Part shown: positions 3,074-22,739 of the stretch, piece after piece
Layout: each line of letters begins with the position of its first letter
Numbering within the stretch: the first letter of the stretch is position 1
Assembly (NCBI GenBank): GCA_007124575.1
Contig: SLEW01000002.1
Location: 1-26,534 of the forward strand
Direction of reading: 5' to 3'
Length of the DNA: 26,534 nucleotides
Source: Bacteroidales bacterium
Lineage (GTDB): Bacteria; Bacteroidota; Bacteroidia; Bacteroidales; UBA7960
Notes under the pieces: generated by a model
What the model was told of the DNA's origin: nothing
The model's input: only the letters and a program-made list of their open reading frames with translations
Database searches by the model: none
Translations under genes and position numbers: made by a program

Positions 3074-3161
3074 TCGTTGTTTTGGTTTTGGTGGTATTCG
3101 TAAGCAAAAATCCTCGACTTTGAATATCAAGGGTTAAGAAATGGAGCTTGAGCGTGTTTGG

Positions 3162-6763: not shown

Positions 6764-7948
6764 CTAAATATACTTCAAACTAACCTCTTTGAGAAATTTC
6801 TCTTCCAGCATTCGTGCGATTTTTTTCATCACCGACCGTCTGATCTCCAGTTCCACTGGCAGGTTGGGGTCCTGATGTGCCACATTGACGGCCGTTCCTG
6901 CCACAAGATGTATGGCATCACTTTCCAGGATCTGCTTTACGATAAGGTCTGCCGGGCCCTTTCCCAGCTCTGTACGGGGGCTGTATTTATCAAGGATTTC
7001 GGCAGTTTTGCTAAGGGTAAGAATGCCTTCGGTTACCAGATCCACCCCGGGCATGAAAGAAACAGGCGGAAGGTCGGGATCATCAAGTTCGAGGGTGTCT
7101 TCAATGGGAATATTCAGCTCACGGCTCACGATATCTGCGGTTGTGCCACCACTAAGGATTTTATTTCCTTTAAAGTTTTTCACCAGTTCAGCAAGTTCCT
7201 TATCCTTTTTCTTCTCAAAGGGTGGGCCACTGCAAAGAAGAAGATGTCGGGGTTCACGAAAATAGATAACAGCAGCACTTGTATCATCCTTGGCCTGGTA
7301 GCCATCGTTGGAATGCGCTTTGTTCACCACCAATGCAGCCAGCTTTCCGGCAGCAATGCCGGGCTTGTCTTTTACCAGAGACAGAACATGTTCGCGCACG
7401 TTCTCATATCCCCAGCCAAGAAGGTATTTCCCCTTGCCAAGCCCTGACTGGGTGATGCCATCTGTCATCAAAAGGATACGATCCTCTTTTTGTGCTTTGA
7501 ACGTGCATGCCCTCAGCTCCTTTTGCGATTTGTCATCGGCTTCAAGCGTAATATACTGCCATTCAGGATCTAAAACATCTTCTTTGCGCAATACCAGGGC
7601 ATCGGGATTATCGTAGTTCAGAATGGTACACTGGCCCTCCTTGTCAATGTCCACAATGGTAAAGGTCGCATAACTGATCCTTCTTTCACTGCAAACCGGA
7701 AGGGTGTTCATGATGATGTCGGCGATCTTGTGGGCATCCTTATGTTCTTTGGTGAAATTCAGTGCCATGGTGGCAGTAAGCGTGGCAAGCAAATTCGCTT
7801 TCACACCGTGTCCCATGCCATCGGAAAGCACTACCACCGTCCGGCCTTCCTCCCTGACCTTCTCCGATAAAAACATATCTCCGCATATACGCTCTCCCAG
7901 ATGATTGCGCTGCGATGACCCCACTTCTATATAAAAACTATCTTCCAT
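6764..7948 (-). CDS. SpoIIE/PP2C-family Ser/Thr phosphatase with an extra C-terminal domain, HfsC-like
   Basis: PP2C metal-binding motifs CGD, LSDGMGHG, MTDG and DDTS are all present, followed by a ~165-aa domain (GGTTA, VDLVTEGILTL). It lies 23 bp downstream of a PAS-containing hydrogenase-like gene, as in hfsABC clusters. Confidence 0.88.
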   Translation of the reverse strand: MEDSFYIEVGSSQRNHLGERICGDMFLSEKVREEGRTVVVLSDGMGHGVKANLLATLTATMALNFTKEHKDAHKIADIIMNTLPVCSERRISYATFTIVDIDKEGQCTILNYDNPDALVLRKEDVLDPEWQYITLEADDKSQKELRACTFKAQKEDRILLMTDGITQSGLGKGKYLLGWGYENVREHVLSLVKDKPGIAAGKLAALVVNKAHSNDGYQAKDDTSAAVIYFREPRHLLLCSGPPFEKKKDKELAELVKNFKGNKILSGGTTADIVSRELNIPIEDTLELDDPDLPPVSFMPGVDLVTEGILTLSKTAEILDKYSPRTELGKGPADLIVKQILESDAIHLVAGTAVNVAHQDPNLPVELEIRRSVMKKIARMLEEKFLKEVSLKYI

Positions 7949-7971
7949 ACCGGTAGCTTACCTGCGATAGA

Positions 7972-9825
7972 TTAATCCTTGCCTGTTTTCCTGTACGTTT
8001 CAATGATGCTGTTGAGCATCTTTTCCGTGGTGCTGGCGCCTTCACCCAGAGAAAAGGCGATCTTCTGAACCATTTTCAGGTTCTCATCAATGACCTCGCT
8101 AACCCTGTTAATGATCTCTTCCTGCCGAACTTCCGCCACATACATGTCACGGAACACACCCCCCACGATTTTGTTGGGTTTCAGCGAATAAATACTTACG
8201 TTAAGCAGCCTGTCGTCATGCTGAACATCTTTGCCTATGATGTTCTCATCGTTTTCAAGCACGTAGGTAAAAAGATTGTAGAGGTTATAGGGCAGTAATG
8301 TTTTCAAGTCAGCTCCGGCAAGTCCGGGTATCACCTCGTTGATCATTTCGGCATCTTCGCCCAGTACCCGGATGAAACTTTCATTGGATTCAATTACCTT
8401 GAGCTTGTCGTCAACAATCACAGCTGCTGATGGCAGGTTTTTCAGCAGGGCAGAGGTTGTATCCGTACGTTGTTTGAGTTTCTGATTCTCTTCAAGAAGG
8501 GATTTTTCCTTGTCAATGAGGCTTTCCTGCTGTTGTTTTAATTTGTCATTATTGTTTTTAAGCGTCTTGATGTAATCTTGTTTGTTTTTGATCGAATAAT
8601 TAAGGCACATTTCAGGCTTTGAAAGGCCCTGGCTGATGCTGGCTGCGAAATCCTGGCAGCTCCTGAAGCCGCAGGCGTTGCATGCAGCACTCTCTTCCAG
8701 TCGCTTACCCAGGCTTTTAAGTATCTCTTCCAGTTGCTCATTGTTGGGTTGGGGCAAACGCTGATCGTCGCGTTCAAAACCCCGGCCAAGATCTATCTCA
8801 AGATGTTTGGCCATGTCTTTTTCCCACTGCTTTTTGTCAAAATCCCTGAGACGTTTATGAACGTAATCCACCACCATGGTACGTCGCAAATATTTGTTGG
8901 ACTGGTCGGTAGTTCCCGGCCCCATAAGACAGCCCGAGTGATAAAAGATGTTGAAATGTTTTTTCAGTGATTCGGTGTGGTCGTTGAATTCGTCCACGGC
9001 ATCCATCATGTTCATCTTTTCTTCAACGGTGATCACCTTGCCGTCAAGCAAAGAATCATCCACCTTCGACGCTTCCACTATGCCTTTGCTGATAGGATAC
9101 AGTGAACCGTGGTAGCCGATGGGTGCATCAAAGTCTGAATACTCAACCTTGGATTCCTTGATCTTAAATCTGTTGAAAAGGTCGCGCAGCTCTTTAAATG
9201 TCAGCACCCTGTCCACATATCCGTCTCCTTCATGCGCGCGTGCCTCATGTTTGGCCGATAAGCACGGGCCGATGAAAACTACTTTGAGGTCTTTGCCATA
9301 GTTTTTGCGCACGGTTTTGGCCGCCGCAGTCATGGGCGTCACAATAGGGGCAAGGTTATCCGTAAGCTCCGGAGCAAACTTTTCCACATAGGAAACAAGG
9401 CTGGGACAGTTGGCCATCAAATAATACTTGCCCTTGAAATTTGTCAGTAAATCATGGTATTTTCTGGCCACCAGGTCCACGCCAAAGGAAACCTCGTTCA
9501 CATAGTCGAAACCTAGTTTACGGATCATTTCCACAAACTTGCGGTAATCTGTGATATCAGGAAATTCACCGCTAATGGTGGGGTCTACGATGGCAGCTGT
9601 CTTGTTATCTGACTCCAGAAGCTCAACAGTCTCCTCCAGTTCACTAATATGACTTACTGCATCGGCAGCACAAACATAGAGGCAGCTTCCGCATCCGATA
9701 CACCGGCTGTGATTGACAACCGGCATGCCATCTTTGCTTCGGGTTGTTATGGCCTTTACCGGACAGGCCCTGATGCATGCATAAGATTGCGTACATCGCT
9801 TATGGTCTATTTCTATGATTTTCAT
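7972..9825 (-). CDS. Group C (sensory) [FeFe]-hydrogenase-like protein with FeS domain, coiled coil and PAS-like domain, HfsB/HydS-like; H-cluster motifs degenerate
   Basis: N-terminal ferredoxin-like motifs (CTQSYACIRACP, CIGCGSCLYVC). H-domain with P1 MANCP, P2 GPCLSAKHE and P3 FYHSGCLMGPG. FeS domain CNACGFRSC...EMC, coiled coil, PAS-like LPSAAVIVD...IESNESF, and C-terminal helix VQKIAFSLGEGA. Confidence 0.88.
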   Translation of the reverse strand: MKIIEIDHKRCTQSYACIRACPVKAITTRSKDGMPVVNHSRCIGCGSCLYVCAADAVSHISELEETVELLESDNKTAAIVDPTISGEFPDITDYRKFVEMIRKLGFDYVNEVSFGVDLVARKYHDLLTNFKGKYYLMANCPSLVSYVEKFAPELTDNLAPIVTPMTAAAKTVRKNYGKDLKVVFIGPCLSAKHEARAHEGDGYVDRVLTFKELRDLFNRFKIKESKVEYSDFDAPIGYHGSLYPISKGIVEASKVDDSLLDGKVITVEEKMNMMDAVDEFNDHTESLKKHFNIFYHSGCLMGPGTTDQSNKYLRRTMVVDYVHKRLRDFDKKQWEKDMAKHLEIDLGRGFERDDQRLPQPNNEQLEEILKSLGKRLEESAACNACGFRSCQDFAASISQGLSKPEMCLNYSIKNKQDYIKTLKNNNDKLKQQQESLIDKEKSLLEENQKLKQRTDTTSALLKNLPSAAVIVDDKLKVIESNESFIRVLGEDAEMINEVIPGLAGADLKTLLPYNLYNLFTYVLENDENIIGKDVQHDDRLLNVSIYSLKPNKIVGGVFRDMYVAEVRQEEIINRVSEVIDENLKMVQKIAFSLGEGASTTEKMLNSIIETYRKTGKD

Positions 9826-9933
9826 ACCCTGCGATTGCGATTATACTCTGTTGATTGTCCGGCGGAACCGGTTTTTCAAATCGATGACAAAAGGCAGACA
9901 GCAAAATGAAGGGCGCTGATTTCTTATCGGCCT

Positions 9934-10188
9934 TTAAGAACCGGAAAAATACGCGTCCAGAAGGTCTGTGACCTTATCAGGCGTTACCTGCGTATGTTTC
10001 TGATAATTAAGTAAGAGCACGGGGCCCTTTTCGCACTCCCCAAAACAATGTGAGCCCCTGAAAAGAACTATATCTTCAAGCCCACGCTCTTTCAGGTATT
10101 TTTTTATAATTCCGAGGGCCTGCTTGTTACCCCTGGAAAAGCAACTGCTTCCCATGCAAATGACGATCTCTGAATGCTCTTGTCCCAT
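9934..10188 (-). CDS. Thioredoxin-like [2Fe-2S] ferredoxin (NuoE C-terminal type), HfsA-like
   Basis: CMGSSC (Cx4C) and HCFGEC (Cx3C). Start moved to ATG 10188 (MGQEHSE, 84 aa). Confidence 0.85.
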   Translation of the reverse strand: MGQEHSEIVICMGSSCFSRGNKQALGIIKKYLKERGLEDIVLFRGSHCFGECEKGPVLLLNYQKHTQVTPDKVTDLLDAYFSGS

Positions 10189-10215
10189 AAAAGATATTAT
10201 TCCGATCAATAAATA

Positions 10216-10223
10216 CAAAATTA
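10216..10223 (-). promoter_or_regulatory. Putative Bacteroidota -7 promoter box for the hfsABC-like unit
   Basis: The minus strand reads TAATTTTG, matching TAnnTTTG, 27 bp upstream of ATG 10188. No clean -33 TTTG was found. Confidence 0.5.
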
Positions 10224-10243
10224 CGGAAAGCTTTCTGAAAAAC

Positions 10244-10261
10244 CAGTTAATTCCTTCACAT
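10244..10261. promoter_or_regulatory. Weak candidate Rex operator
   Basis: CAGTTAA-TTCC-TTCACAT matches TTGTGAA-N4-TTCACAA at 10/14 positions and overlaps the expected -33 region of the leftward promoter. Confidence 0.3.
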
Positions 10262-10361
10262 CTTATATACAAGAGTTTATTTAAGAATTAATCTAAATAA
10301 CATTAATGCCGCCTTTTTTTCGTTTTATGCCCCTTTGTTATGTCAAAACTATTTTTTTCTT

Positions 10362-10369
10362 TATCTTTG
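10362..10369 (+). promoter_or_regulatory. Putative Bacteroidota -7 promoter box for the hydCBA operon
   Basis: TATCTTTG matches TAnnTTTG. A TTTG lies at 10334-10337, 24 nt upstream, slightly longer than the usual spacing. Confidence 0.55.
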
Positions 10370-10383
10370 TTGCTAGGGTTAGG

Positions 10384-10407
10384 TGTATTGCAAACATTTG
10401 ACATACA
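10384..10407. promoter_or_regulatory. Imperfect 24-bp palindrome, candidate operator
   Basis: TGTAT-tg-CAAA-ca-TTTG-ac-ATACA gives 9 complementary pairs, just downstream of the -7 box. Confidence 0.35.
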
Positions 10408-10441
10408 GCACTTTAGTTTTGTTATAAGAAATTGTTTTATA

Positions 10442-10459
10442 TTGTGAACAAAATATCAA
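10442..10459. promoter_or_regulatory. Candidate Rex operator
   Basis: TTGTGAA-CAAA-ATATCAA has a perfect left half-site and matches 11/14 overall. It lies 12 bp before the hydC start, and a rex gene is in the same operon. Confidence 0.5.
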
Positions 10460-10471
10460 CACGATAGGCCA

Positions 10472-10945
10472 ATGACAGTTGAGCTGGAACATATTTTTAA
10501 AGTTTATCCCAACAGCAAGCGTGAAGACCTCATTCCCATGCTTCAGGCTATCCAGGATGAGCAGGGTTATCTTACGGAGGAGGTGATCCATGAAGTGGGC
10601 AAGTACTTGGATATCAGTGTGAATAAGATCTATGGGGTAGCCACTTTTTATGATAACTTTCGCTTTGGCCCTGTTGGCAGGTATCATTTTCGCCTTTGTC
10701 ACGGTACCGCATGCCATGTGGCCGGTGCATCAACACTTCAGAAAGAGTTGCAGAAGTTACTGAAGATCAATGCAGGTGAGACCGATAAAAATGGATTATT
10801 CAGCCTTGAGGTTGTTAGTTGCATAGGCGCTTGCGGACTGGCACCTCTGATTGAGGTCAATGAGGAGTATTATACAAATATTACCCTTGAGTCGTTAAAA
10901 GCCCTGGTGGACAAGATCAGGGAAAAAGAAAATGATGTCTTATGA
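10472..10945 (+). CDS. NuoE-like [2Fe-2S] subunit of a multimeric [FeFe]-hydrogenase (HydC/HndA type)
   Basis: LIPMLQAIQ, IYGVATFY, CHGTACH, SCIGACGLAP. ATGA overlap with the next gene. Confidence 0.93.
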   Translation: MTVELEHIFKVYPNSKREDLIPMLQAIQDEQGYLTEEVIHEVGKYLDISVNKIYGVATFYDNFRFGPVGRYHFRLCHGTACHVAGASTLQKELQKLLKINAGETDKNGLFSLEVVSCIGACGLAPLIEVNEEYYTNITLESLKALVDKIREKENDVL

Positions 10946-12891
10946 GCCTGGATGCGAAACTTGAGAATCGTCAGTTTTTGATCAACAAAGTCTTGCTGGA
11001 CCCCAGACGCGATGAAGATGCTGGCGTACGCAAGTCATTGTCATACATATCGGGGGAGCGGGTACACAAAGCCTTGATCTATGTCGGCATGGCAACTTGT
11101 GGCAAGGTAGCCGGAGCAAAAAAAACCTTTCTGGCCATTCAAAACTATCTCCAGGATCATGATATTGATGTTACGCTTGTAGAAGGTGGATGTGTAGGGT
11201 TTTGCAGGGAAGAACCTCTTGTGGATGTGCAGCTTCCCGGAAAGGCGCGCATATCCTTCGGAAATGTTACTTCGGATAAGGTACAGCCCCTCCTGGATGA
11301 TATACTCAACAACAACCTGCCTGAGCAGAAACCCCTGGGCCAGTATCAGAATCCAATTCTTCAGCAATGGGATGGTGTGCCTTTCATGGAGGAGCATGTC
11401 TTTTTTGCCGGACAGCAAAGGTTGCTGATGGACAATTGCGGAATAATTGATCCGGTTTCTATCGAGAGCTACATTGCTAAAGGCGGTTACTGGTCCTTTA
11501 CCGATACCATTTCCACAAAAACACCCGCCCAGGTTTGTGACATTATCGATAAAAGTGGCCTCGCCGGAAGGGGAGGAGGAGGCTACTCTGCAGGAAAAAA
11601 GTGGAACGCTGCCCTAAGCACGGTAAGTGACAACAAATACCTGGTATGCAATGCCGTTGAGAGCGATCCCGGCAGCTATATGAACCGGGCTATCATAGAA
11701 AGCAATCCGCACAGGCTTATCGAAGCTGTGCTCATTGCAGCTTATGCCATAGGCGCAGGTAAAGCCTATATCTTTATCCGGGAAGAATTCAGCCTCGCTA
11801 TCAGCAGATTGGAAAAAGCCATCAGCCAGGCCCGTGAAATGGGCATTATAGGGCATCATATCTTTGAATCCGGGGTAAACATTGATGTAGCTGTAAAAAA
11901 AGGAGCCCGTGCGTTTGTATGTGGTGAAGAGACGGCACTGATCAACAGCTTAGAGGGTAAACGTGCCATGCCCTCTTCAAAGCCTCCTTACCCGGCCGAA
12001 AAGGGCCTTTGGGATCATCCTACCATTGTTAATAATGTGGAAACCCTTTTTAATGTGCCCCTGATCCTGAAAAATGGCAGCGAATGGTTTCATGATACAG
12101 GCACAAAAAGAAGCAAAGGCACCAAAATATTTACACTTTCAGGCAAACTGAAGAACTATGGCACTGTAGAAGTACCTATGGGTATGACTTTTCGCGATAT
12201 CTTAAACGATATTGGAGGAGGCATGGCCGGCGAAAAAGACTTCAAGGCCATCGTGCTCGGAATCAACAGCGGAAGCTATATCACCGAAGAAACGCTTGAC
12301 ATCAAAGTAGACTTCGATGAATTAAAAAGCATAGGTGGCGCTCTGGGAAGCGGAGCCTTTGTAGTGCTTGACTCCGGAGTGTGTATGGTGGACATGGCCA
12401 AATACTTCACAGCCTTTTTTAAAAACGAAAGCTGCGGAAAATGTATTCCATGTCGCGAAGGTACCGCACGGATGCTGGAAGTAATGGAAAACGTCACCCG
12501 AAGACCAAGTGACAATCAGTCCTTCCAGACACTGGAAAGATTTAAGGGCGTGATGCAGCTAAAAAACCTTGCCGGGGTTATCAGCGAAACATCACTTTGC
12601 TCACTGGGGAAATCATCACCCTACGCCATTCTCAACACACTGAAACATTTTAAGAAAGAATTTGATGCACATATCTTTGAAAGGAAATGTGCAGCAAATA
12701 TATGCACCGACCTTAGGATATATCATATCGATGTGGATGCGTGCACAGGATGCACCGCCTGTTTTAAAAAATGCCCGGTCGATGCCATCATAGGCTCGCC
12801 CCGCTATCCACACTTTATCGTACAGGACAAATGCATCGGATGCGGTACCTGCTTTGACGTGTGTAAGTTTAATGCGGTGCTTATCAAATAA
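10942..12891 (+). CDS. NuoF-like flavin/NADH subunit of a multimeric [FeFe]-hydrogenase (HydB/HndC type) with an N-terminal thioredoxin-like domain; divergent FMN/NADH motifs
   Basis: GMATCG...GCVGFC, GLAGRGGGGYSAGKKW, CNAVESDPGSYM, FVCGEETAL, NNVETL, SCGKCIPCREG...SLCSLG, HIFERKCAANIC, and two C-terminal [4Fe-4S] motifs. Confidence 0.92.
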   Translation: MSLDAKLENRQFLINKVLLDPRRDEDAGVRKSLSYISGERVHKALIYVGMATCGKVAGAKKTFLAIQNYLQDHDIDVTLVEGGCVGFCREEPLVDVQLPGKARISFGNVTSDKVQPLLDDILNNNLPEQKPLGQYQNPILQQWDGVPFMEEHVFFAGQQRLLMDNCGIIDPVSIESYIAKGGYWSFTDTISTKTPAQVCDIIDKSGLAGRGGGGYSAGKKWNAALSTVSDNKYLVCNAVESDPGSYMNRAIIESNPHRLIEAVLIAAYAIGAGKAYIFIREEFSLAISRLEKAISQAREMGIIGHHIFESGVNIDVAVKKGARAFVCGEETALINSLEGKRAMPSSKPPYPAEKGLWDHPTIVNNVETLFNVPLILKNGSEWFHDTGTKRSKGTKIFTLSGKLKNYGTVEVPMGMTFRDILNDIGGGMAGEKDFKAIVLGINSGSYITEETLDIKVDFDELKSIGGALGSGAFVVLDSGVCMVDMAKYFTAFFKNESCGKCIPCREGTARMLEVMENVTRRPSDNQSFQTLERFKGVMQLKNLAGVISETSLCSLGKSSPYAILNTLKHFKKEFDAHIFERKCAANICTDLRIYHIDVDACTGCTACFKKCPVDAIIGSPRYPHFIVQDKCIGCGTCFDVCKFNAVLIK

Positions 12892-12904
12892 CCAGAGCTA
12901 AGCC

Positions 12905-14602
12905 ATGGAATGCAAGATAGAAGTTAACCATAAAACTTTAAAAGTACAGGAGGGTGAAAGCCTGTTGTCTGCTTTGCGTCAGCACGGATTTAAAATACCC
13001 ACCATGTGCCACATGAATCGTTTCTCTCCTACTGGTGCATGTCGGCTGTGTGTGGTGGAAGTGGAGGGTAAAAGTGACCTGATAACCTCTTGTTCCTTCC
13101 CTGTAGAGGCTGGCATGAAGGTACAAACAAACTCACAGCGCGTTATCAAAGCCAGGAAGTCATTGGTGGAATTGCTGCTGTCTGACCACCCGGATGATTG
13201 TCTTTATTGCCAGCGTAACGGCCATTGTGAGTTGCAATGGCTTGCAGCGGAAATGAACGTAAAAGAACGAAAGTATTTCGCAGGAAAACAAAAAGATAAC
13301 CCCGACTATTCCAGTACGTCAGTAGCAAGAGACCCTGCCAAATGTGTACTCTGCAGCAGGTGTGTTCGTATATGTGAAGAGGTGCAGCGTGTTACCGCCA
13401 TCGATTTCATTTCGCGGGGAACAAGAACAAAAGTCAACAGCGCCTTTCATAAAGGGTTGAATGTCTCTTCATGCATCCATTGCGGTCAATGCATCCAGGT
13501 TTGTCCTACCGCTGCGCTGACAGACATTTCACATCTTGAAAAAGTAAATGCCGCACTGGGCAATAAGAAAAAACAGGTGATGTTTGTTATCAGTCCTGCG
13601 GCAATAGTCAGCGTCACAGAACTTATACAATCCAAATCAAAAAACAAAGTCAGGGCCAGGCTGACTGCTGCCCTGAAAAGACTCGGGGCCAGCAAGGTGT
13701 TTGATAGCGGTACAGCTGCAGACATTCATGTGATGGAAGAGGCACGGCAACTTGCAGAATTAATCAGAAGCAAAGACAAAAAAGATCTGCCTCTTATTTC
13801 ATCCTGTTGCCCCTCATGGATACGTTATGCCGAAGGTTTCAAGCCACAGCTAACCCAGCACATAGCAAAAGTAAAATCGCCCGGACACATCGCAGGCAGC
13901 CTTATAAAGCTCAATTATGCCCGTGAGCATGACGTAGCCATGGAAGACATCTATACAGTATCAGTAACACCATGCGTTGCCAAAAAATATGAAGCAAGCT
14001 GGGAGGAAAATACACATAAGGGGGTATCGGAAGTAGATGCAGTGCTGACCGTTCGCGAATTATTCCTCCTGTTGCGCAGCTTTGGGCTCAACCTGGAACA
14101 GATTGAAGAGGAAGAGATGGATGCGCCTTATAACCATTCATCAGCAGCTGCCATAAAACTTGGCTATTCGGGTGGGAAAGCTGAATCGGTGGCACAGGAA
14201 TTGTTTAACATAATGGGCGGAAGCAAGAAAGAAGCCTTCCGGTTCATGCAGCCTAAAAGTATTACCAGCAAGAGAGAAACAAAGGTCAAAATAGGAAAAA
14301 CGCAGGTAGGCTTTGCCTGGGTAAGCAGCATTGCCGAGGCGGAAGACTACCTTAATGAACTTGGGGAGTCAAAGCGGGATGATATCCATTACATTGAGGT
14401 AATGGCATGCCTCGGGGGTTGTGCCGGAGGAGGTGGTCAGCCTATCAGCCGGGGTTTTGAACAGCCAAAGGCAAGAAAAAAGATCTCCGTCGAAATGGAG
14501 AAAAAGGCAGCATGGCAAAAAGCCTCCGGGAACACCATGGCGGCCGACCTGTTTGAACGTTTTTCTTTCAGACAAAATGAAATCTGGGAAGACCCATTTT
14601 GA
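12905..14602 (+). CDS. [FeFe]-hydrogenase catalytic-type subunit (HydA/HndD type, group A3 architecture), divergent
   Basis: 2Fe-2S (PTMCH, CRLC, TSC), His-ligated cluster HPDDCLYCQRNGHC, and 2x[4Fe-4S]. P1 ISSCCPSW, P2 TPCVAKKYE, P3 EVMACLGGCAGGGGQP. The C-terminal LLHTxY motif is absent. Confidence 0.9.
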   Translation: MECKIEVNHKTLKVQEGESLLSALRQHGFKIPTMCHMNRFSPTGACRLCVVEVEGKSDLITSCSFPVEAGMKVQTNSQRVIKARKSLVELLLSDHPDDCLYCQRNGHCELQWLAAEMNVKERKYFAGKQKDNPDYSSTSVARDPAKCVLCSRCVRICEEVQRVTAIDFISRGTRTKVNSAFHKGLNVSSCIHCGQCIQVCPTAALTDISHLEKVNAALGNKKKQVMFVISPAAIVSVTELIQSKSKNKVRARLTAALKRLGASKVFDSGTAADIHVMEEARQLAELIRSKDKKDLPLISSCCPSWIRYAEGFKPQLTQHIAKVKSPGHIAGSLIKLNYAREHDVAMEDIYTVSVTPCVAKKYEASWEENTHKGVSEVDAVLTVRELFLLLRSFGLNLEQIEEEEMDAPYNHSSAAAIKLGYSGGKAESVAQELFNIMGGSKKEAFRFMQPKSITSKRETKVKIGKTQVGFAWVSSIAEAEDYLNELGESKRDDIHYIEVMACLGGCAGGGGQPISRGFEQPKARKKISVEMEKKAAWQKASGNTMAADLFERFSFRQNEIWEDPF

Positions 14603-14622
14603 AAGACAAGGAATTTTACATT

Positions 14623-16674
14623 ATGACAGAAGACAAGACCAGAGAGATTATATATACGGTTAAAGACCGCTGCAAGGTATGCTATACATGTGTCAGGGAA
14701 TGCCCTGCCAAGGCCATAAAAATCATCAACGGCCAGGCAGAGATCATTTCCAGCAGATGTATCGCTTGCGGGAATTGCATACGGGTGTGCAGCCGCGACG
14801 CCAAGATGTTTGTCTTTTCAATAGACAAGGTGAAGACCTTGCTGCACAGCCATCAAAAAGTGGCTGCCATCGTTGCACCTTCCATTGCCGGTGAGTTTAC
14901 TGACATTAAAGACTACCGTCACTTTGTGGGAATGATAAAGGCCCTTGGTTTCGACTATGTGAACGAAGTGGCTTTTGGTGCTGAACTTATCGCAAGCAAA
15001 TACAAAGAACTCCTGGAATCCAAACCCGGAAGACCCCTCATATCTACAAGCTGCCCCTCTATCGTAAGCTATGTGGAAAAACACCACCCTCAGATTATTG
15101 ATTCCCTGGTTCCCGTGGTATCGCCAATGGTAGCCACAGCAAAAGTACTGAAGGAAAAACATGGCGACGATCTGCGTATTGTGTTTATAGGGCCCTGTAT
15201 TGCCAAAAAAGTGGAAGCTGAAGATAAGCAGTTTCAGGGTCTTATTGATGAGGTCATTTCTTTCCTGGAGTTGCGCAGAATGTTTGAAGAGAAAAAGCTT
15301 ACCGAAGAGAATGCTGAACCCCATGAATTTGACCCACCAGTGGCCGGTAAGGGTGCTATATTCCCTATAAGCGGGGGCATGTTGCAAACTGTAGACCTGG
15401 AAGAAGATTTTGTCAAAGGTGACATTATTGTGGCCGAAGGCCGGCACGACATCATCGAAGTACTGCGTGAATTTGAAGAAGGCTACCTGGAAGCCAAAAT
15501 GTTTGACCTCCTGCTTTGTAATGGCTGCATCAACGGCCCGGGTATGAGCCATAACCGGCAGTTCTTTTATAAAAGAAAGAACATATCCAACTTTGCAAAA
15601 AGAAGAAAAGATCTCATAGATCAGGATATGTGGCAGAAAGACCTGGAAACCTATCTGCAGCTAGAAATGAACAGAACATTTCAAGCCGATGATCAGCGAT
15701 TTACCGATCCACCTAATGAAGAAGAAATCCGTGAGGTGTTAAAACGTTTTGGGAAAAAAGAGCCAGAAGATGAGTTGAATTGCGGGGCATGTGGTTATGA
15801 TACCTGTTATGAACATGCTGTAGCCATCCTGCAAGGGTTAGCAGAATCAGAAATGTGCCTGCCTTATACCATAGACAAGCTGCATGAATATATCACGGAG
15901 CTGGATAAATCGAACCAAAAGCTGGCCTCTACGCAGGATGCTCTCAAGCAAAGCGAAAAGCTTGCATCCATGGGGCAACTGGCCGCAGGCATCGCACATG
16001 AAGTAAATAATCCGCTGGGGGTGGTGATCATGTATAGCCATATCCTGCTGGATGAGATGGATCCTTCATCACCGCTGTATCGCGACCTGAAAATGATCGT
16101 AGAGCAAGCCGACAGGTGTAAAAAAATCGTAGGCGGACTGCTCAACTTTGCCCGGAAGAGCAAGGTAAAGATTGATAAAGTAGACGTGAAAAAACTTATT
16201 AATGCCGGCCTGAAAACATTCGTGCTGCCCGAAAACGTGCATCTTGATATACGTATCAATACCCGCAACCCAGGCCTGGAATGTGACCATGACCAGATGG
16301 TGCAGGTCTTTTCCAATTTGTTTAAAAACGCAGTGGATGCCATGCCCGATGGCGGCAAGCTTAGTATCGTGGTAAGCGAAGAAGCGGGAAAAGACGGCCT
16401 GGCGATCAGTATAAGCGACTCTGGCACAGGAATTTCCAAAGAAAACCAGGAGAAAATGTTCGAACCCTTCTTTACGACAAAAGAAACAGGGCAGGGTACA
16501 GGCCTGGGACTTCCTATCATTTACGGCATCATCAAAATGCACAGCGGAAATATTAAAGTTGATTCAAATGACGATCCCGGGAAAGGTGCTACGGGAACCA
16601 CTTTTTACTTAAGCCTGCCCCGTAAGACTCCTGACAAGCATAAAACAACAAGCGAAGAAAAGCAGATTGGTTAA
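14623..16674 (+). CDS. Group C [FeFe]-hydrogenase domain fused to a histidine kinase (HisKA + HATPase_c)
   Basis: 2x[4Fe-4S] (CKVCYTCVRECP, CIACGNCIRVC), APS loop, P1 STSCP, P2 GPCIAKKVE, P3 LLCNGCINGPG, FeS domain CGACGYDTC...EMC, coiled coil. Kinase boxes: H AHEVNNP, N NLFKNAVDAM, DSGTGI, FEPFFTTK, GTGLGL. Start moved to ATG 14623. Confidence 0.93.
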   Translation: MTEDKTREIIYTVKDRCKVCYTCVRECPAKAIKIINGQAEIISSRCIACGNCIRVCSRDAKMFVFSIDKVKTLLHSHQKVAAIVAPSIAGEFTDIKDYRHFVGMIKALGFDYVNEVAFGAELIASKYKELLESKPGRPLISTSCPSIVSYVEKHHPQIIDSLVPVVSPMVATAKVLKEKHGDDLRIVFIGPCIAKKVEAEDKQFQGLIDEVISFLELRRMFEEKKLTEENAEPHEFDPPVAGKGAIFPISGGMLQTVDLEEDFVKGDIIVAEGRHDIIEVLREFEEGYLEAKMFDLLLCNGCINGPGMSHNRQFFYKRKNISNFAKRRKDLIDQDMWQKDLETYLQLEMNRTFQADDQRFTDPPNEEEIREVLKRFGKKEPEDELNCGACGYDTCYEHAVAILQGLAESEMCLPYTIDKLHEYITELDKSNQKLASTQDALKQSEKLASMGQLAAGIAHEVNNPLGVVIMYSHILLDEMDPSSPLYRDLKMIVEQADRCKKIVGGLLNFARKSKVKIDKVDVKKLINAGLKTFVLPENVHLDIRINTRNPGLECDHDQMVQVFSNLFKNAVDAMPDGGKLSIVVSEEAGKDGLAISISDSGTGISKENQEKMFEPFFTTKETGQGTGLGLPIIYGIIKMHSGNIKVDSNDDPGKGATGTTFYLSLPRKTPDKHKTTSEEKQIG

Positions 16675-16694
16675 ACAATAAAACACCATATATT

Positions 16695-17093
16695 ATGCTG
16701 AAAAAAGAAAAAAAAACCATCCTGATTGTCGATGACGATGTCGACTATCTTTTTCAGATGAAAGAAGGAATTAAGGACATGGGTTTTGAAGTGATCACTG
16801 CCGGGACGCAAAAGGAGGCAGAAGACATCATAGAACGTACCCGTCCCGACCTCGCTATCCTTGATCTGATGATGGAAAACCAGGATACCGGTTTCATCCT
16901 GGGGCATAGGATTAAAAACACCTATCCGGATGTGCCTGTGATTATCGTGTCGGCCGTCACCGCGGAAACAGGAATGCTTTTCGATGTGACCACGGAAGAG
17001 GATCGCGACTGGATCAAGGCTGAGCTTTTCCTTGATAAGGGCATCAGGATGGATCAGTTGCATAAGGAGATCAAGAAGCTTCTAAAAATATAA
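16695..17093 (+). CDS. Single-domain response regulator (receiver only)
   Basis: ILIVDDD, phosphoacceptor ILDLMM, IIVSA, and Lys in FLDKG. No output domain (132 aa). Confidence 0.92.
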   Translation: MLKKEKKTILIVDDDVDYLFQMKEGIKDMGFEVITAGTQKEAEDIIERTRPDLAILDLMMENQDTGFILGHRIKNTYPDVPVIIVSAVTAETGMLFDVTTEEDRDWIKAELFLDKGIRMDQLHKEIKKLLKI

Positions 17094-17097
17094 TCCG

Positions 17098-18222
17098 ATG
17101 GAAAATCTTAAGCTTTTGGTTGTTGATGATGAGCCTGGTATTCGCAGCGGGGTGAGTCGCATCCTTGAAAATTATACAGTAAGCTTTCCTTTTATGGATG
17201 AAGATTATGGCTTTACTGTGGATGTAGCGGAAACAGGCGAAGAGGCGCTTGAGATCATCAAAAGCAAACCACTCGACATTATCCTGCTCGACAACAAGCT
17301 TCCTGGTATCCAGGGAGTGGAAGTGCTTGAATATATAAATCAGCAAAACATCGACGTGGTGGTGGTGATGATCACTTCGTATGCCTCTCTTGAACTCGCA
17401 GTGAAAGCTACCCGGCAGGGAGCCTACGATTTTGTACCCAAGCCATTCACACCAAAAGAGCTGCGTGCATCCGTGGAAACGATCACAAAACAGCTGTTCC
17501 TTCGCAGGATGACCCAGAAACTTAACACGGAAGGTCGCCAGGTGCGGTTTCAGTTTCTTTCTGTGCTTTCACATGAACTGAAGTCCCCGCTCAATGCGGT
17601 AGAAGGTTATCTTAAAATGATGCAGGACAAAAAATATGGCGAGCAGATCACCGAATACATGGAAATGATAGACCGTTCGCTGCACAGAGTAAAGGGCATG
17701 CGGAATCTTATAATGGATATGCTTGACTTTACCAAAATTGAAAGTGGCAAAAAACAGCGGAAAATCAAACCTTTGGATCTGTGTGACATTAGCCAGCAGT
17801 GCGTTGAGGCATTTCAGCCTCTTGCTATTCAAAAAGACGTGGACATTTATATCAATTGTAGTGAAAAGATCACCCTGGAAGCTGACAAGCAGGAAATTGA
17901 GATTATATGCAATAACCTGATATCCAATGCAATAAAATACAACAAAAATGGCGGCAGGGTGGATGTCAACCTCAATAAGGAAGAAGACAAGGTAATCCTA
18001 AGTGTAGAAGATACAGGCATAGGCATGGAGCCTGAAGACACCAAAACTCTTTTCGAAGATTTTGTCAGGATTAAAAGCGAACAGACAAAGGATATCACGG
18101 GTAGTGGACTTGGCCTGTCGATTGTGAAGAAGATTCTGGATATGTATGATGCCAGTATCTCCATTGACAGTGAGCCTGGTAAGGGCAGCTGCTTTACCGT
18201 GGTATTCAATAACCAGGCATGA
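17098..18222 (+). CDS. Hybrid receiver-histidine kinase (REC-HisKA-HATPase_c)
   Basis: LVVDDE, LLDNKLPG, MITSY, PKPF; then SHELKSPL, NLISNAIKY, EDTGIG, F-box and GSGLGL. No transmembrane or sensor domain. Confidence 0.93.
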   Translation: MENLKLLVVDDEPGIRSGVSRILENYTVSFPFMDEDYGFTVDVAETGEEALEIIKSKPLDIILLDNKLPGIQGVEVLEYINQQNIDVVVVMITSYASLELAVKATRQGAYDFVPKPFTPKELRASVETITKQLFLRRMTQKLNTEGRQVRFQFLSVLSHELKSPLNAVEGYLKMMQDKKYGEQITEYMEMIDRSLHRVKGMRNLIMDMLDFTKIESGKKQRKIKPLDLCDISQQCVEAFQPLAIQKDVDIYINCSEKITLEADKQEIEIICNNLISNAIKYNKNGGRVDVNLNKEEDKVILSVEDTGIGMEPEDTKTLFEDFVRIKSEQTKDITGSGLGLSIVKKILDMYDASISIDSEPGKGSCFTVVFNNQA

Positions 18223-18261
18223 TTCAAAAAAATAATCAATAACAAGCATACAGGCAGAAAA

Positions 18262-18891
18262 ATGGGCAAAAACAAACCACAGGCGTTGCCGGGTAAAACG
18301 GTGGAAAGACTCAGCCAATACAGGCGGATACTATATAACAGCATCCGTGAGGGCAAAACCAACATTTACTCCCATGAGCTGGCCAAAATGATGAACCTCA
18401 CTCCTGTGCAGGTGCGCAGGGATTTAATGCTTATAGGTTATTCCGGAAGCCAGAGCAAAGGGTATGTTGTTAAAGACCTGGTGACCCTGATAGGCAAAAT
18501 CATCGACAGCGACAAAGGCCAAAGGATCATTGTGGTAGGGATGGGTAATCTGGGAAGGGCAATCACCAGCTATTTCAGCGGAAAGCGTGAAAAACTCTCT
18601 ATTGCGGCCGCATTCGACAACGATTTGCAGAAAACAGACCGCATCGTGGCCGGGATCCCTTGCTATCATATCAACCAGATAAAGGAATATGTAGAAAAAG
18701 AGGGTATCAGTATTGCCGTGCTGACCGTATCTCCCGAAGCCACCCATGATGTATCCAAAAAACTGCTGGAAGCAGGCATCAAAGGGATTTTAAACTACAC
18801 CTCTGTACCGCTTACCGTGCCGGAAGATGTTCACCTGGAAGAATATGATATTGTTACATCACTCGAAAAACTAGCTTATCTTGTAAAATGA
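18262..18891 (+). CDS. rex: Redox-sensing transcriptional repressor Rex
   Basis: Winged helix RLSQYRR...SHELA...QVRRDL...GY and Rossmann motif VGMGNLGRA. ATGA overlap with the next gene. Confidence 0.94.
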   Translation: MGKNKPQALPGKTVERLSQYRRILYNSIREGKTNIYSHELAKMMNLTPVQVRRDLMLIGYSGSQSKGYVVKDLVTLIGKIIDSDKGQRIIVVGMGNLGRAITSYFSGKREKLSIAAAFDNDLQKTDRIVAGIPCYHINQIKEYVEKEGISIAVLTVSPEATHDVSKKLLEAGIKGILNYTSVPLTVPEDVHLEEYDIVTSLEKLAYLVK

Positions 18892-19808
18892 AGGTATATT
18901 ATCATACCGCAGAAGCGGCAGGAAAGATAAAGAATGCAGTTGTTACCACAGGCTCCTTTGATGGTGTGCACGTAGGACATAAGTTGATAATAGACAGGCT
19001 TAATGAGATCGCTGATGACATCGGGGGCGAATCCGTGCTTATCACTTTTTATCCGCATCCGCGGAAAGTACTGTATCCCGATCAGCAAAGCCTGAAAATG
19101 ATTAACTCGCAGGAAGAAAAAATCGAGCTCCTTCGCAAGGCAGGCCTTAAAAACCTCATCATCATCCCCTTTTCTCTTGAATTTTCAAAGACAACTTCAA
19201 GAGATTTTGTAGTCAACATGCTCGTCGGCCATCTGGAGGCCCGTGTCATTGTCGTAGGACATAACCATCACTTTGGCTATGCCAGAAAGGGTGACTATAC
19301 ATACCTGCATCGCCTAAGCCGCGATGTGGGGTTTGGCGTGGAAGAAATCCCCCTGCAAATGATAGAAAATGAAACCGTTAGTTCTACGAAGATCAGGAAG
19401 GCACTGCAGGAAGGTTACATACAAAGAGCCAACGCTTACCTGGATCACCAATACATCATCAAAGGAAAACTTTATGATGGTCCTGTCTATTCCGGTATCA
19501 GCTCCCAACCCATGACAGGTATTGAAATTACTGCTGACGAGAAGCTTATCCCCCCACCTGGCATATATGCCACCAACCTGTTTTTGGAAGGCGAGTGGCT
19601 GAAAACCATGACATACATCTCCTATGTAGGTAACGGACAGCCCAGGGTGGAAAGCATGTTTATTTACGATGATGTGCGCGTCACAAACAAATCCGGTACC
19701 CTCTATTTTTACAAGCGTGTAATGGAGGGAGATCCGGCCGGAAATGGTTCAATGGATCAGAACATGATGAGTCAAGCCAGGGAAATGGTGGAAGACCTGA
19801 TCTACTAA
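18888..19808 (+). CDS. RibF-like FAD synthetase (FMN adenylyltransferase) with a degenerate riboflavin-kinase domain
   Basis: The N-domain is intact: GSFDGVHVGH, TFYPHP, VVGHNHHFG, VSSTKIR. The C-domain keeps IPPPGIYA but lacks GxxxGRxLGFPTAN and NxGxRPT. Confidence 0.85.
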   Translation: MKVYYHTAEAAGKIKNAVVTTGSFDGVHVGHKLIIDRLNEIADDIGGESVLITFYPHPRKVLYPDQQSLKMINSQEEKIELLRKAGLKNLIIIPFSLEFSKTTSRDFVVNMLVGHLEARVIVVGHNHHFGYARKGDYTYLHRLSRDVGFGVEEIPLQMIENETVSSTKIRKALQEGYIQRANAYLDHQYIIKGKLYDGPVYSGISSQPMTGIEITADEKLIPPPGIYATNLFLEGEWLKTMTYISYVGNGQPRVESMFIYDDVRVTNKSGTLYFYKRVMEGDPAGNGSMDQNMMSQAREMVEDLIY

Positions 19809-19830
19809 TGCAAGAAAATCTGGTACTATC

Positions 19831-20610
19831 ATGGTTGATAAAAAAAACATGACCATCACTTTTTTAGGAACAGGGACATCCACAGGTGTTCCGGTTGTGG
19901 CTTGCAACTGCCAGGTATGTACCAGTTCAGATCCGCACGATCAAAGACTGAGAACGTCTGTGATGCTCTCGCTGAACGGACATCACTATGTGATTGATTG
20001 TGGCCCTGACTTCCGATACCAGATGATACGGGAAAAAGTGGATGATATTTCCGCCATTCTTTTTACCCATGGCCATCGCGACCATATTGCCGGCCTCGAC
20101 GATGTACGTGCGTTCAATTATGTGCTCAATAAAACGGTAGATATCTATGCCACCGAAAGGGTGATTGACTCCATTAATAAAGAGTTTCCATACATTTTGA
20201 AGGAAAAACGCTTTTTTGGTGCCCCACAGCTTCATTTTCACATCATCGAAAATAAGCCATTTACAATAAACGGTACGCTATTCAAGCCTGTGGAAGTCCT
20301 GCATCATAAAATGCCGGTGCTGGGTTTCCGGGTAGGTGATTTTACCTATATTACAGATGCAAGTTATATCTCTGATGAAGAAAAAGAGAAGATAAAAGGA
20401 AGCAAGGTGCTGGTAATTAATGCGCTGCGTAAATCCAAACATATTTCTCACTTCTCTCTTGATGAAGCCCTGCAGGTGATTGAAGAGGTAAAGCCAGAAA
20501 AGGCATGGATTACACATCTTAGCCACTTCATAGGAATGCATGAGGATATCAATCGCTCCCTTCCCGGCCATGTTGCCCTTGCCTATGACGGCCTGCAAAT
20601 ACAGCTTTAA
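19831..20610 (+). CDS. Metallo-beta-lactamase-fold hydrolase, PhnP/YycJ-like phosphodiesterase
   Basis: FLGTGTSTGVP, IDCGPD, THGHRDHIAG, YITD, THLSH, AYDG. Confidence 0.9.
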   Translation: MVDKKNMTITFLGTGTSTGVPVVACNCQVCTSSDPHDQRLRTSVMLSLNGHHYVIDCGPDFRYQMIREKVDDISAILFTHGHRDHIAGLDDVRAFNYVLNKTVDIYATERVIDSINKEFPYILKEKRFFGAPQLHFHIIENKPFTINGTLFKPVEVLHHKMPVLGFRVGDFTYITDASYISDEEKEKIKGSKVLVINALRKSKHISHFSLDEALQVIEEVKPEKAWITHLSHFIGMHEDINRSLPGHVALAYDGLQIQL

Positions 20611-22209: not shown

Positions 22210-22476
22210 ATGCAACAGACCATGGTTCTCGGCATTTTGGTGTTTGACCGCATCAAAGAGGCCGGCAAAACACAAGAAGTACTTACCAGGCATGCTGATG
22301 TAATCCGCACAAGACTTGGATTTCATGAACTATCCGATAATATTTGCAGCCGTGTTGGTACAATCCTGCTGATATTGCAGGGAAAACCCGAAAAATGGGA
22401 GAGACTGCGTGAAGAACTCGCAAAGGTCGGCGGTATTGAAATAAAAGAAATGAAGTTCGAGCACATGTTCAAGTAA
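22210..22476 (+). CDS. TM1266-family iron-only hydrogenase system regulator (ACT-like), copy 1
   Basis: LGILV..R...Q.VLT....IRTRLGFH...G.I.L pattern; directly after hydG. Confidence 0.8.
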   Translation: MQQTMVLGILVFDRIKEAGKTQEVLTRHADVIRTRLGFHELSDNICSRVGTILLILQGKPEKWERLREELAKVGGIEIKEMKFEHMFK

Positions 22477-22487
22477 ACCATGATATC

Positions 22488-22739
22488 ATGTCAGAAATAA
22501 GAATTTTAGGCGTTCTGGTAGAGTCCAGAACGGAAGCAGCACAAAAAGTACAGGATATCCTCACCAAATATGGTTGTTCCATCAGAACACGAATGGGGTT
22601 GCATACACTGGAAATGGATGATTGTGAAAACTGCGGGCTGATTATCCTGGAGCTCACAGGGAGCCAGGAAGAATGTATGCGCCTGGAAAACGAGTTATGG
22701 AAACTCGATAATGTTAAAGTACAAAAAATGGTGTTCTGA
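22488..22739 (+). CDS. TM1266-family iron-only hydrogenase system regulator (ACT-like), copy 2
   Basis: LGVLVESR...VQDILTKYGCSIRTRMGLH...GLIILEL...VQKMVF. Confidence 0.85.
   Translation: MSEIRILGVLVESRTEAAQKVQDILTKYGCSIRTRMGLHTLEMDDCENCGLIILELTGSQEECMRLENELWKLDNVKVQKMVF

Follow-up and report, generated by a model that had tools for sequence, protein, structure and literature searches.

In the present study, we examined the hydrogenase locus on a window of 26,534 nucleotides from a Bacteroidales bacterium (assembly GCA_007124575.1, contig SLEW01000002.1). The window is the entire 26.5-kb contig of a metagenome-assembled genome (MAG; 2.08 Mb, 75% complete), and the same sequence occurs in many independent soda-lake and alkaline-sediment metagenomes of 2012-2022. 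Two divergent gene units are arranged around one trimeric [FeFe] hydrogenase, HydABC. The right unit (forward strand) reads hydC-hydB-hydA, a hydrogenase-like histidine kinase, a receiver (REC), a receiver-kinase hybrid, rex, a ribF paralog and a metallo-beta-lactamase (MBL)-fold hydrolase; the left unit (reverse strand) reads a small [2Fe-2S] protein, a PAS-type hydrogenase-like sensor and a PP2C phosphatase. Gene identities were taken from the open reading frame (ORF) listing and from Pfam and NCBIfam family scans, and every gene named in a preliminary description of this DNA was found where it had been placed. The picture drawn there, in which a His-Asp arm, a PP2C arm and Rex are combined with a single HydABC, was borne out. 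What is new at this locus, judged from its sequence, is an enzyme that has drifted from the standard design within a known two-sensor layout.

Results

The right arm is tightly packed, as had been described. Its intergenic gaps are 13, 20, 20, 4, 39 and 22 bp, none exceeding 39 bp, and the two ATGA overlaps were read directly at 10942-10945 and 18888-18891. The block extends past 20610, where it had been taken to end, and also includes hydG and two TM1266-like genes.

The hydrogenase itself is encoded on the forward strand by hydC (10472-10945; NuoE-like [2Fe-2S] subunit; Pfam 5e-48; NCBIfam nuoE_fam 147 bits, above the cut-off), hydB (10942-12891; NuoF-like flavoprotein by Pfam and PDB alignments, best PDB match 8a6t, 2e-159) and hydA (12905-14602; a derived variant of the M3-type catalytic subunit; best PDB match HydA1 of T. 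kivui, 8a6t, 6e-120). HydA is composed of an N-terminal [2Fe-2S], a His-ligated [4Fe-4S], a 2x[4Fe-4S] region and an H-domain with four H-cluster cysteines, and its Cys and His cluster ligands are all invariant in a 22-sequence alignment. Its motifs are SSCCPSW (P1), TPCVAKKYE (P2) and EVMACLGGCAGGGGQP (P3). Residue numbers follow the CpI numbering, with positions set by alignment to 8a6t and 7q4v. The active-site motifs of this HydABC had been called eroded, which holds only in part: the four H-cluster cysteines, the Cys299 and Glu279 equivalents, Lys358 and Glu361 are kept, but the proton relay, the second shell and the C-terminal tail are changed. The proton-transfer pathway is incomplete, with Gln for Glu282, Ala for Ser319 and Leu for Arg286, and none of 119 HydA homologs has Glu at the Glu282 position. 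In addition, GGVMEA has become GGKAES (the family form, GGKAEA, is found in 117-119 of the 119 homologs), KLG stands in place of the IFG of the references, and Met353 is replaced by Thr, a residue present there in only 11 of the 119. The window protein gave no match to PF02256, the C-terminal small-subunit-like domain, and its NCBIfam scores lie below the cut-offs (FeFe_hydrog_A, 343 against 406 bits; A6, 544 against 765 bits). HydB has retained the N-terminal [2Fe-2S] and C-terminal 2x[4Fe-4S] domains with all cluster cysteines; compared with the PDB sequences, its flavin/NADH-site motifs read NAVESDPGSYMN for NADEGDPGAFMD, GARAF for GAGAF and GINSGS for GGPSGG. Changes in the proton relay, the flavin site and the HydA tail accompany fully retained metal-cluster cysteines.

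For the distribution of the cassette, a pattern scan derived from an alignment of HydA homologs gave more than 590 matches in species-representative genomes, and the best 80 were examined with 10-kb flanks. In nearly all of these 80 loci, genes for the kinase-fused sensor, the receiver and the receiver-kinase come after hydC-hydB-hydA. The loci belong to Bacteroidota, Planctomycetota, Acidobacteriota, Hydrogenedentota, Myxococcota, Lentisphaerota and others, and the order hydCBA-kinase-REC-REC/kinase was seen in at least six phyla besides Bacteroidota. Standard cassettes, which lack the PP2C arm, show HydA and HydB motifs that are canonical throughout and, outside Bacteroidota, usually carry rex upstream of hydC; cassettes lacking this arm have an extra upstream protein, made of REC and about 70 residues with no recognisable output domain. 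Two-sensor cassettes (about 35 among the best 80, nearly all labelled Bacteroidota and one Thiohalospira) have a divergent upstream unit of PP2C, PAS sensor and small Fe-S genes, and usually rex, ribF, MBL and hydG downstream. At the level of the order, an even sample of 200 genomes gave a strong match to the kinase-fused sensor in 97; by hand count from the match table, a full-length ortholog was present in about 73, and both sensors lay within 7 kb on opposite strands of the same contig in about 30. The arrangement, which recurs in dozens of species-level genomes, is far beyond chance. Hence, the layout in the preliminary description is real and recurs widely, but it is ordinary for the order and not a novelty.

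The survey placed the window in a clade formed by loci L006-L018 and L027, the 13 closest of which were used for several counts, and HydABC changes by degrees between the types. In standard cassettes the HydA motifs are canonical (TSC[CS]PGW, MEEAsEL..R, MPCTAKKFE, GGVMEA); they are partly changed in two-sensor cassettes and most changed in the window clade. The HydB motifs likewise pass from the canonical CNADEGDPGAFMDR, GAGAF and GGPSGG through CNA[DAG]ESDPG, often with GPGA, to CNAVESDPGSYMNR, GARAF and GINS[GK]. In the 13 closest species-level loci CNAVESDPGSYMNR is invariant, and the other derived HydB motifs vary slightly. The PF02256 tail of HydA scores 81-88 bits in standard, 50-57 in two-sensor and 14-16 in window-clade proteins, with none in the window; the flavokinase domain of the ribF paralog, a gene missing from standard loci, scores 70-73 bits in two-sensor cassettes and 24 and 18 in the window clade. 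Divergence of HydA relative to the kinase rises in the same order, from 0.72-0.75 to 1.0 and 1.48, and the rate trend of HydB and HydC runs parallel. In the maximum-likelihood tree, a branch with 100% support separates the two-sensor HydAs from the others, and the window sub-clade stands on a long stem (0.51). Between species, at 55-69% protein identity, synonymous sites are saturated. By these comparisons, all three HydABC subunits are derived in this lineage and have evolved fast compared with the kinase, and the graded series supports the earlier sense that this HydABC is unusual. The association of the PP2C arm with a derived HydABC counts as a single event, because the evidence comes from essentially one evolutionary lineage. 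TSCSPGW, with Ser at the usual second P1 Cys, is present in many canonical HydAs (G000:C31:3167-4084, L037, L039, L048); PMC11406978 likewise remarks on the frequency of Ser here.

The hydrogenase-like histidine kinase (14623-16674, forward strand; group C H-domain, HisKA and HATPase by Pfam) follows hydA. Our PDB search returned no HydS-type structure, and sensor positions were mapped through group A enzymes. Marks of sensory enzymes have been given as the loss of Cys299 and of the whole proton pathway, replacement of Met353 and a C-terminal Cx2Cx4Cx16C (PMC8163306). The kinase-fused protein combines 2x[4Fe-4S], the H-domain and Cx2Cx4Cx16C with replaced Cys299 and Met353, and its P1 and P2 are STSCP and GPC. 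The four H-cluster cysteines, Lys358, GPC (for MPC), Cx2Cx4Cx16C and the H-box are invariant in 71 orthologs, and the Cys299 position is Asp or Ser. By its residues, this protein is a well-kept sensor. Downstream are the single-domain, CheY-like receiver (16695-17093, forward strand; Pfam 5e-16), with acidic pocket and phospho-acceptor Asp conserved in 73 orthologs, and the REC-HisKA-HATPase hybrid (17098-18222, forward strand; Pfam), with acidic pocket, receiver Asp, H-box and N/G boxes conserved in 68. The core residues of a two-component phosphorelay are thus all present, namely the H-box and ATPase boxes in the kinases and the receiver Asp. Pfam scans detected no sensor, HPt or output domain in the hybrid and no HPt domain within the block. 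In loci L020, L023, L027, L054 and L072 the kinase-fused sensor is lost and the receiver or receivers after hydA are retained; these natural deletions could inform on the role of the relay.

The left unit, on the reverse strand, begins with the small thioredoxin-like [2Fe-2S] protein (9934-10188; 84 residues from the ATG at 10188; Pfam 2Fe-2S_thioredx, 3.6e-9), which occupies an hfsA-like position and has orthologs of 83-120 residues from stop to stop. The next gene (7972-9825) encodes a HydS-type hydrogenase-like sensor of 617 residues (group C, M2f-like; Pfam Fer4, Fe_hyd_lg_C and FeS, PF04060), in which 2x[4Fe-4S] is followed by the H-domain, a Cx2Cx4Cx16C cluster, a long coiled coil and a PAS-like domain. 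Its motifs are ANCPS, GPCLSAK and FYHSGC, with ANCP at P1 and GPC at P2, and Cys299 and Met353 are replaced, as in sensory enzymes. Lys358 is missing from the whole family of this sensor. The first P3 H-cluster Cys is His in the window protein (codon 8938-8940); this position is H, D or N across the window clade and Cys in most other orthologs. The PAS domain reported for this sensor stays below the Pfam threshold in the window protein (E 0.017-0.027), but it is supported by orthologs and by the predicted fold: PAS_8 / PAS models match 11 of 29 orthologs (best E 9.6e-6), and the AlphaFold2 (AF2) model has a b2-a4-b3 PAS-like topology at residues 467-560, after the coiled coil (predicted local distance difference test, pLDDT, 78).

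The third gene of this unit (6764-7948) encodes a PP2C/SpoIIE (RsbU-type) Ser/Thr phosphatase (Pfam SpoIIE, 6e-18), with 26 orthologs at 57-80% identity. In its AF2 model (pLDDT 85.7), residues 1-230 resemble SpoIIE and RsbU phosphatases (E 2e-13 to 1e-8). The C-terminal alpha/beta domain (residues ~235-394), which is strongly conserved, gave no Pfam match and no significant Foldseek match, the whole-model search having matched the phosphatase half only, and a look-up in ESM Atlas returned only unnamed clusters at 0.91. Stand-alone hypothetical proteins akin to this domain were seen in Spirochaetota and Bacillota clusters. Pfam scans of the window found no Ser/Thr kinase or phospho-protein substrate gene. 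Stand-alone STAS proteins are present elsewhere in the genome, and nothing ties them to this locus. The small Fe-S protein, the PAS hydrogenase-like protein and the PP2C stand together in one unit, which is the composition of an hfsABC-like module.

The Rex repressor, which senses NADH/NAD+, is encoded after the relay (18262-18891, forward strand; NCBIfam Rex subfamily, 203 bits against a cut-off of 126). The 283-bp divergent region described between the two units is confirmed, provided that the small Fe-S gene starts at ATG 10188; the alternative TTG at 10272, chosen by the mechanical ORF listing, would leave only 199 bp. ATG 10188 is preferred because ortholog lengths and a conserved -7 box agree with it. 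A scan for sigma-70 promoters and terminators was dropped, as promoter-like sites were fewer than in shuffles and the scan was thus uninformative for promoters of Bacteroidetes type; phylogenetic footprinting on an alignment of 11 orthologous intergenic regions was used instead. The Bacteroidetes -7 consensus is presumably TAnnTTTG. A candidate -7 box for the left unit, TAATTTTG (10216-10223, reverse strand), is conserved in the 11 regions, and another for the hydC operon, TATCTTTG (10362-10369, forward strand), appears as TAT[CAT]TTTG in orthologs. Directly upstream of the leftward -7 box is a strongly conserved Rex-like operator, Box L (10246-10261; reverse complement ATGTGAAGGAATTAAC), with 10 of 14 matches to TTGTGAAnnnnTTCACAA. 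A second, Box R (TTGTGAACAAAATATCAA, 10442-10459; 11 of 14 matches), ends 12 nt before the hydC ATG and is one of only two sites with at least 11 of 14 matches in the window. Of the 13 window-clade loci, 11 have the Box R element at -24 to -37, around a spacer that varies, and other two-sensor loci have TTGTTA-N6-TAACAA at -84 to -93. Putative Rex-type operators are thus conserved at both divergent promoters, and Rex would be expected to bind them. A Rex protein together with an inverted-repeat candidate operator at the promoter is what a Rex regulon requires at the sequence level.

Between the promoters, a 21-bp block, AATTAATCTAAATAACATTAA (10286-10306), is near-invariant in 8 of the 11 regions and could be the site of a missing output regulator. 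The gene dnaA is located 7 kb to the left (1622-3130), and the cumulative GC skew turns at the divergent region (~10 kb). A replication origin there was considered as the cause of the conserved intergenic blocks and rejected, as DnaA boxes are 9 against 7.1 expected and not clustered; the turn in skew probably just reflects the change of coding strand.

Expression and selection were judged from a metatranscriptome of soda-lake sediment, from the same sample as one of the DNA runs, in which contigs cover every gene. The depth of the RNA library drops over the divergent promoter region and in the 160-bp gap that precedes hydG, and that of the DNA run is flat, which speaks for RNA rather than carried-over DNA; expression level can be gauged only poorly from contig depth, and a contig spanning two genes does not amount to one transcript. 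Between the window and these contigs there are 40 single-base differences, 33 synonymous and 7 non-synonymous (hydA 3:0, hydB 3:1, hydC 3:3, PAS sensor 3:0). The genes are under purifying selection in the population. Furthermore, the HydABC frames contain no stops or frameshifts in at least 13 species-level orthologs. Pseudogenisation of HydABC was rejected as the main explanation, since the frames are intact in all orthologs and the strain variants are mostly synonymous.

The remaining genes of the block are accessory. The ribF paralog (18888-19808, forward strand) has kept its FAD-synthetase domain intact (FAD_syn, 153 bits), and its flavokinase domain has decayed (Flavokinase, 18.2 bits, under the cut-off of 19.6). 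It follows rex in most two-sensor loci, and complete relatives possess a second, canonical RibF elsewhere (G001:C1:3696371-3697258; G003:C9:80237-81121) with a flavokinase domain of 141-152 bits. A possible role of the paralog is to provide FAD for the PAS domain or the altered HydB. The MBL-fold hydrolase gene (19831-20610, forward strand; Pfam and NCBIfam) keeps its place between ribF and hydG across many two-sensor loci. Next on the forward strand come hydG, the radical-SAM maturase of the H-cluster (20771-22198; NCBIfam TIGR03955, 506 bits against a cut-off of 312), and two tandem TM1266-like small genes, annotated as 'putative iron-only hydrogenase system regulator' (22210-22739; Pfam PF21699, 6e-5 and 2e-8). 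One metatranscriptome contig is without one base at 22267, in the first of these two, by strain difference or assembly error. The genome also has hydF.

A check of the genome for canonical paralogs was positive. Two further trimeric hydrogenase H-domains, both canonical and each with a PF02256 tail, are present at loci cut by contig ends. The one on contig C14 is followed by a NuoE-like gene and passes group A at 493.5 bits, though truncated; the one on contig C31 is followed by a second rex. Both extra loci recur in 5 of 5 other cassette-bearing genomes examined. In these relatives, the first reads hydB-hydA-hydC after a 460-residue group-D-like H-domain protein, a PHP protein and a small HATPase protein; the second reads hydC, a short hydB (~400 residues) and hydA, with a Rex-like gene next in 1 of 3 loci read. 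Each trimeric hydrogenase having its own putative regulator fits the idea of a sensor next to the enzyme it controls. A set of 450-470-residue Fer4, weak H-domain and FeS (group-D/M2e-like) protein, PHP and HATPase_c was observed at L087:9758-12801, L089:11824-14817 and L090:8565-11584, and the neighbourhood of this M2e-like protein resembles one described for TamHydS.

Discussion

The same kinase-REC-REC/kinase partners accompany a canonical HydABC in many phyla, and for this reason an enzyme with its regulator is taken as the ancestral logic of the cassette. We consider, with a probability of about 0.6, that the block is a hydrogenase operon under Rex and H2 control, that it belongs to a widespread type already on record, and that in this lineage the properties of its enzyme have shifted. 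Conserved genes, invariant cysteines, fixed derived motifs, positional Rex boxes and RNA coverage favour this reading; the positions of the Rex boxes are conserved and the spacers variable. The enzyme of the soda-lake lineage is probably functional but shifted, with slower or differently biased turnover, because the proton path, the flavin site and the tail are altered.

In such an operon, Rex would bind Box L and Box R when NADH/NAD+ is low and switch both units off, including its own gene, since rex lies in the operon; on accumulation of NADH, both units would be expressed. HydABC, matured by HydEFG, would then dispose of reducing equivalents as H2, or take up H2. The kinase-fused sensor may bind H2 at its intact H-cluster, which has no proton relay, and signal through the C-terminal Fe-S cluster and the coiled coil to the kinase core. 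The kinase would phosphorylate the single receiver and the receiver-kinase hybrid, and the final target would be encoded outside the block. In parallel, the PAS-type sensor and its small [2Fe-2S] partner may set the activity of the PP2C on some phospho-Ser/Thr protein.

Several observations weigh against a regulated, working enzyme. HydA is without the Glu282, Ser319 and Arg286 equivalents and any recognisable small-subunit-like tail, HydB without the Asp of NADEG (now Val) and the GGPSGG loop, and HydABC evolves faster than its own sensor, at about twice the relative rate seen in standard cassettes (1.48 against 0.72-0.75). The PAS-type sensor of this lineage is short of one H-cluster cysteine, Pfam scans found neither a DNA-binding or enzymatic output response regulator nor a Ser/Thr kinase in the block, the two canonical trimeric hydrogenases of the genome could bear the metabolic flux, and biochemistry is on record for no member of the cassette. 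The preliminary description had gone further and taken the whole locus as a sensing device rather than an enzyme. A derived HydABC beside canonical paralogs agrees with that proposal; the invariant cluster ligands and the conservation of the derived motifs do not. The step from a derived HydABC to one that is not an enzyme was not upheld, given the 33 synonymous against 7 non-synonymous strain changes and the Rex-type operator in the hydC leader, a feature also of fermentative hydrogenases under Rex control.

One way to account for these observations is that HydABC acts as a redox input and not as a flux enzyme, as a slow complex that comes to equilibrium with NADH, ferredoxin and H2 and whose state is relayed to both sensors. 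The graded loss of the proton relay, of the PF02256 tail (81-88, 50-57, then 16 bits or none), of H-domain score and of the HydB flavin motifs would fit, as would the doubled relative rate of HydABC, the canonical paralogs in every genome checked, and a tree in which the two-sensor HydAs are one clade with the window sub-clade on its 0.51 stem. We nevertheless hold this to be unlikely: the Cys299 and Glu279 equivalents and all cluster ligands are retained, known sensory hydrogenases are single chains without the whole relay, Cys299 included (PMC8163306), the same kinase partners serve canonical enzymes elsewhere, and no fusion or co-variation evidence ties HydA to the kinase. A complex of ~1,370 residues and many clusters would also be a costly sensor. 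That the trimer has turned into a slow redox-equilibrating input module for NADH, ferredoxin and H2, feeding two hydrogenase-derived transducers, appears distinctly improbable; if true, it would be a multi-subunit hydrogenase serving as a sensor, caught in a graded transition from a working enzyme.

Relaxed constraint on a redundant paralog would read the same drift differently, with HydABC slowly losing performance and the sensors, Rex and the relay mainly regulating other targets, such as other hydrogenases and fermentation genes. The absence of stops and frameshifts in at least 13 species-level orthologs, the invariance of the derived residues, the 3:0 ratio of hydA strain variants, RNA-library contigs over hydCBA and the candidate Rex operator kept before hydC all speak against it. 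It is therefore also unlikely in our judgement, even though HydA and HydC are less well conserved in the window clade than the sensors, the REC proteins, Rex, PP2C and HydG, the kinase domain of the ribF paralog decays in parallel (70-73 to 24 to 18 bits), the PAS sensor loses one cysteine in parallel, and individual parts are missing from some related loci (L020, L023, L027). A changed cofactor or substrate, in which the complex would use another flavin or pyridine nucleotide than standard HydABC, is very unlikely. The Asp to Val change in NADEG and the change of GGPSGG to GINSGS are both fixed in the clade, and a FAD-synthetase-only ribF paralog follows rex in most two-sensor loci with a canonical RibF elsewhere; yet this paralog is also found beside two-sensor cassettes with nearly canonical HydB motifs, it could equally serve a flavin of the PAS domain, and the HydB site was judged from sequence, without a structural model.

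Clusters of HydABC (BfuABC) with an extra sensory hydrogenase, 'BfuT', of PAS or kinase type, were described in 2024 in PMC11406978. Perlabentimonas gracilis, Tenuifilum thalassicum and Williamwhitmania taraxaci each have two bfuT genes, one upstream of bfuC and the other downstream of bfuA; the implications of this layout are called 'unclear', and HydDB assigns both PAS-type and kinase-type BfuT to C3 (PMC11406978). The present locus is like these 'sub-type V'/two-bfuT clusters in having a sensor gene upstream of hydC and a kinase-domain sensor downstream of hydA, in the same phylum; one of our examined loci, L082, is from a Tenuifilaceae MAG. As that paper notes the layout in three cultured Bacteroidota, it is in print but uncharacterised, so the hope of novelty falls in part. 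PP2C, Rex operators, the relay, the ribF paralog and a derived HydA and HydB are unmentioned in the passages of that account consulted here, and the soda-lake clade is the most derived branch.

The enzyme has the same subunits, domains and clusters as bifurcating HydABC of [FeFe] group A3 (T. kivui 8a6t, A. woodii 7q4v/8a5e, T. maritima 7p5h). It differs in the replaced Glu282, Ser319 and Arg286 equivalents, Thr for Met353, the lost PF02256 tail, NAVES for NADEG in HydB and scores under the NCBIfam group A cut-offs. Genetic work on hfsABCD/HydS provides evidence for a regulatory, and not merely catalytic, role of PAS-type hydrogenase-like proteins (PMC5707799, PMC11837493). The left unit resembles HydS/hfsABC(D) of Ruminococcus albus and Thermoanaerobacterium in placing an Fe-S protein, a PAS sensor and a serine phosphatase beside a hydrogenase (PMC5707799, PMC11837493). 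In contrast to these systems, it is divergent from a trimeric enzyme, is not followed by a monomeric ferredoxin hydrogenase (hfsD/HydA2), has no adjacent Ser/Thr kinase and has His in place of the first P3 cysteine. Both sensors share with TmHydS (group C, M2f) and TamHydS (group D, M2e) the 2x[4Fe-4S], H-domain, Cx2Cx4Cx16C, replaced Cys299 and GPC (PMC8163306, PMC10055695); unlike them, one is fused to HisKA-HATPase and the other lacks a cluster ligand. Control by Rex and HydS has been proposed for bifurcating hydrogenases (PMC10084766, PMC5707799). As in the operons for which Rex regulation is proposed (R. albus, Hnd of Solidesulfovibrio; PMC10084766), rex is beside the hydrogenase with a candidate TTGTGAA/TTGTTAA-type operator, but here rex is inside the operon, downstream of the relay, and each of the two divergent units has an operator-like box of its own.

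Conclusion

The graded series is a natural experiment on which hydrogenase residues can change in a retained protein, and it could show how sensory hydrogenases arise from enzymes. To our knowledge, the kinase-fused type of hydrogenase-like sensor has never been purified, and we know of no [FeFe] H2-sensing pathway resolved from signal to output. The cassette brings together a hydrogenase, Rex, a sensor-kinase made as one polypeptide and a second sensor with its phosphatase, and it is very common in anaerobic Bacteroidales and present in several other phyla. Since it occurs in cultured species, it may offer a practical system for studying how fermenters sense H2 and NADH together.

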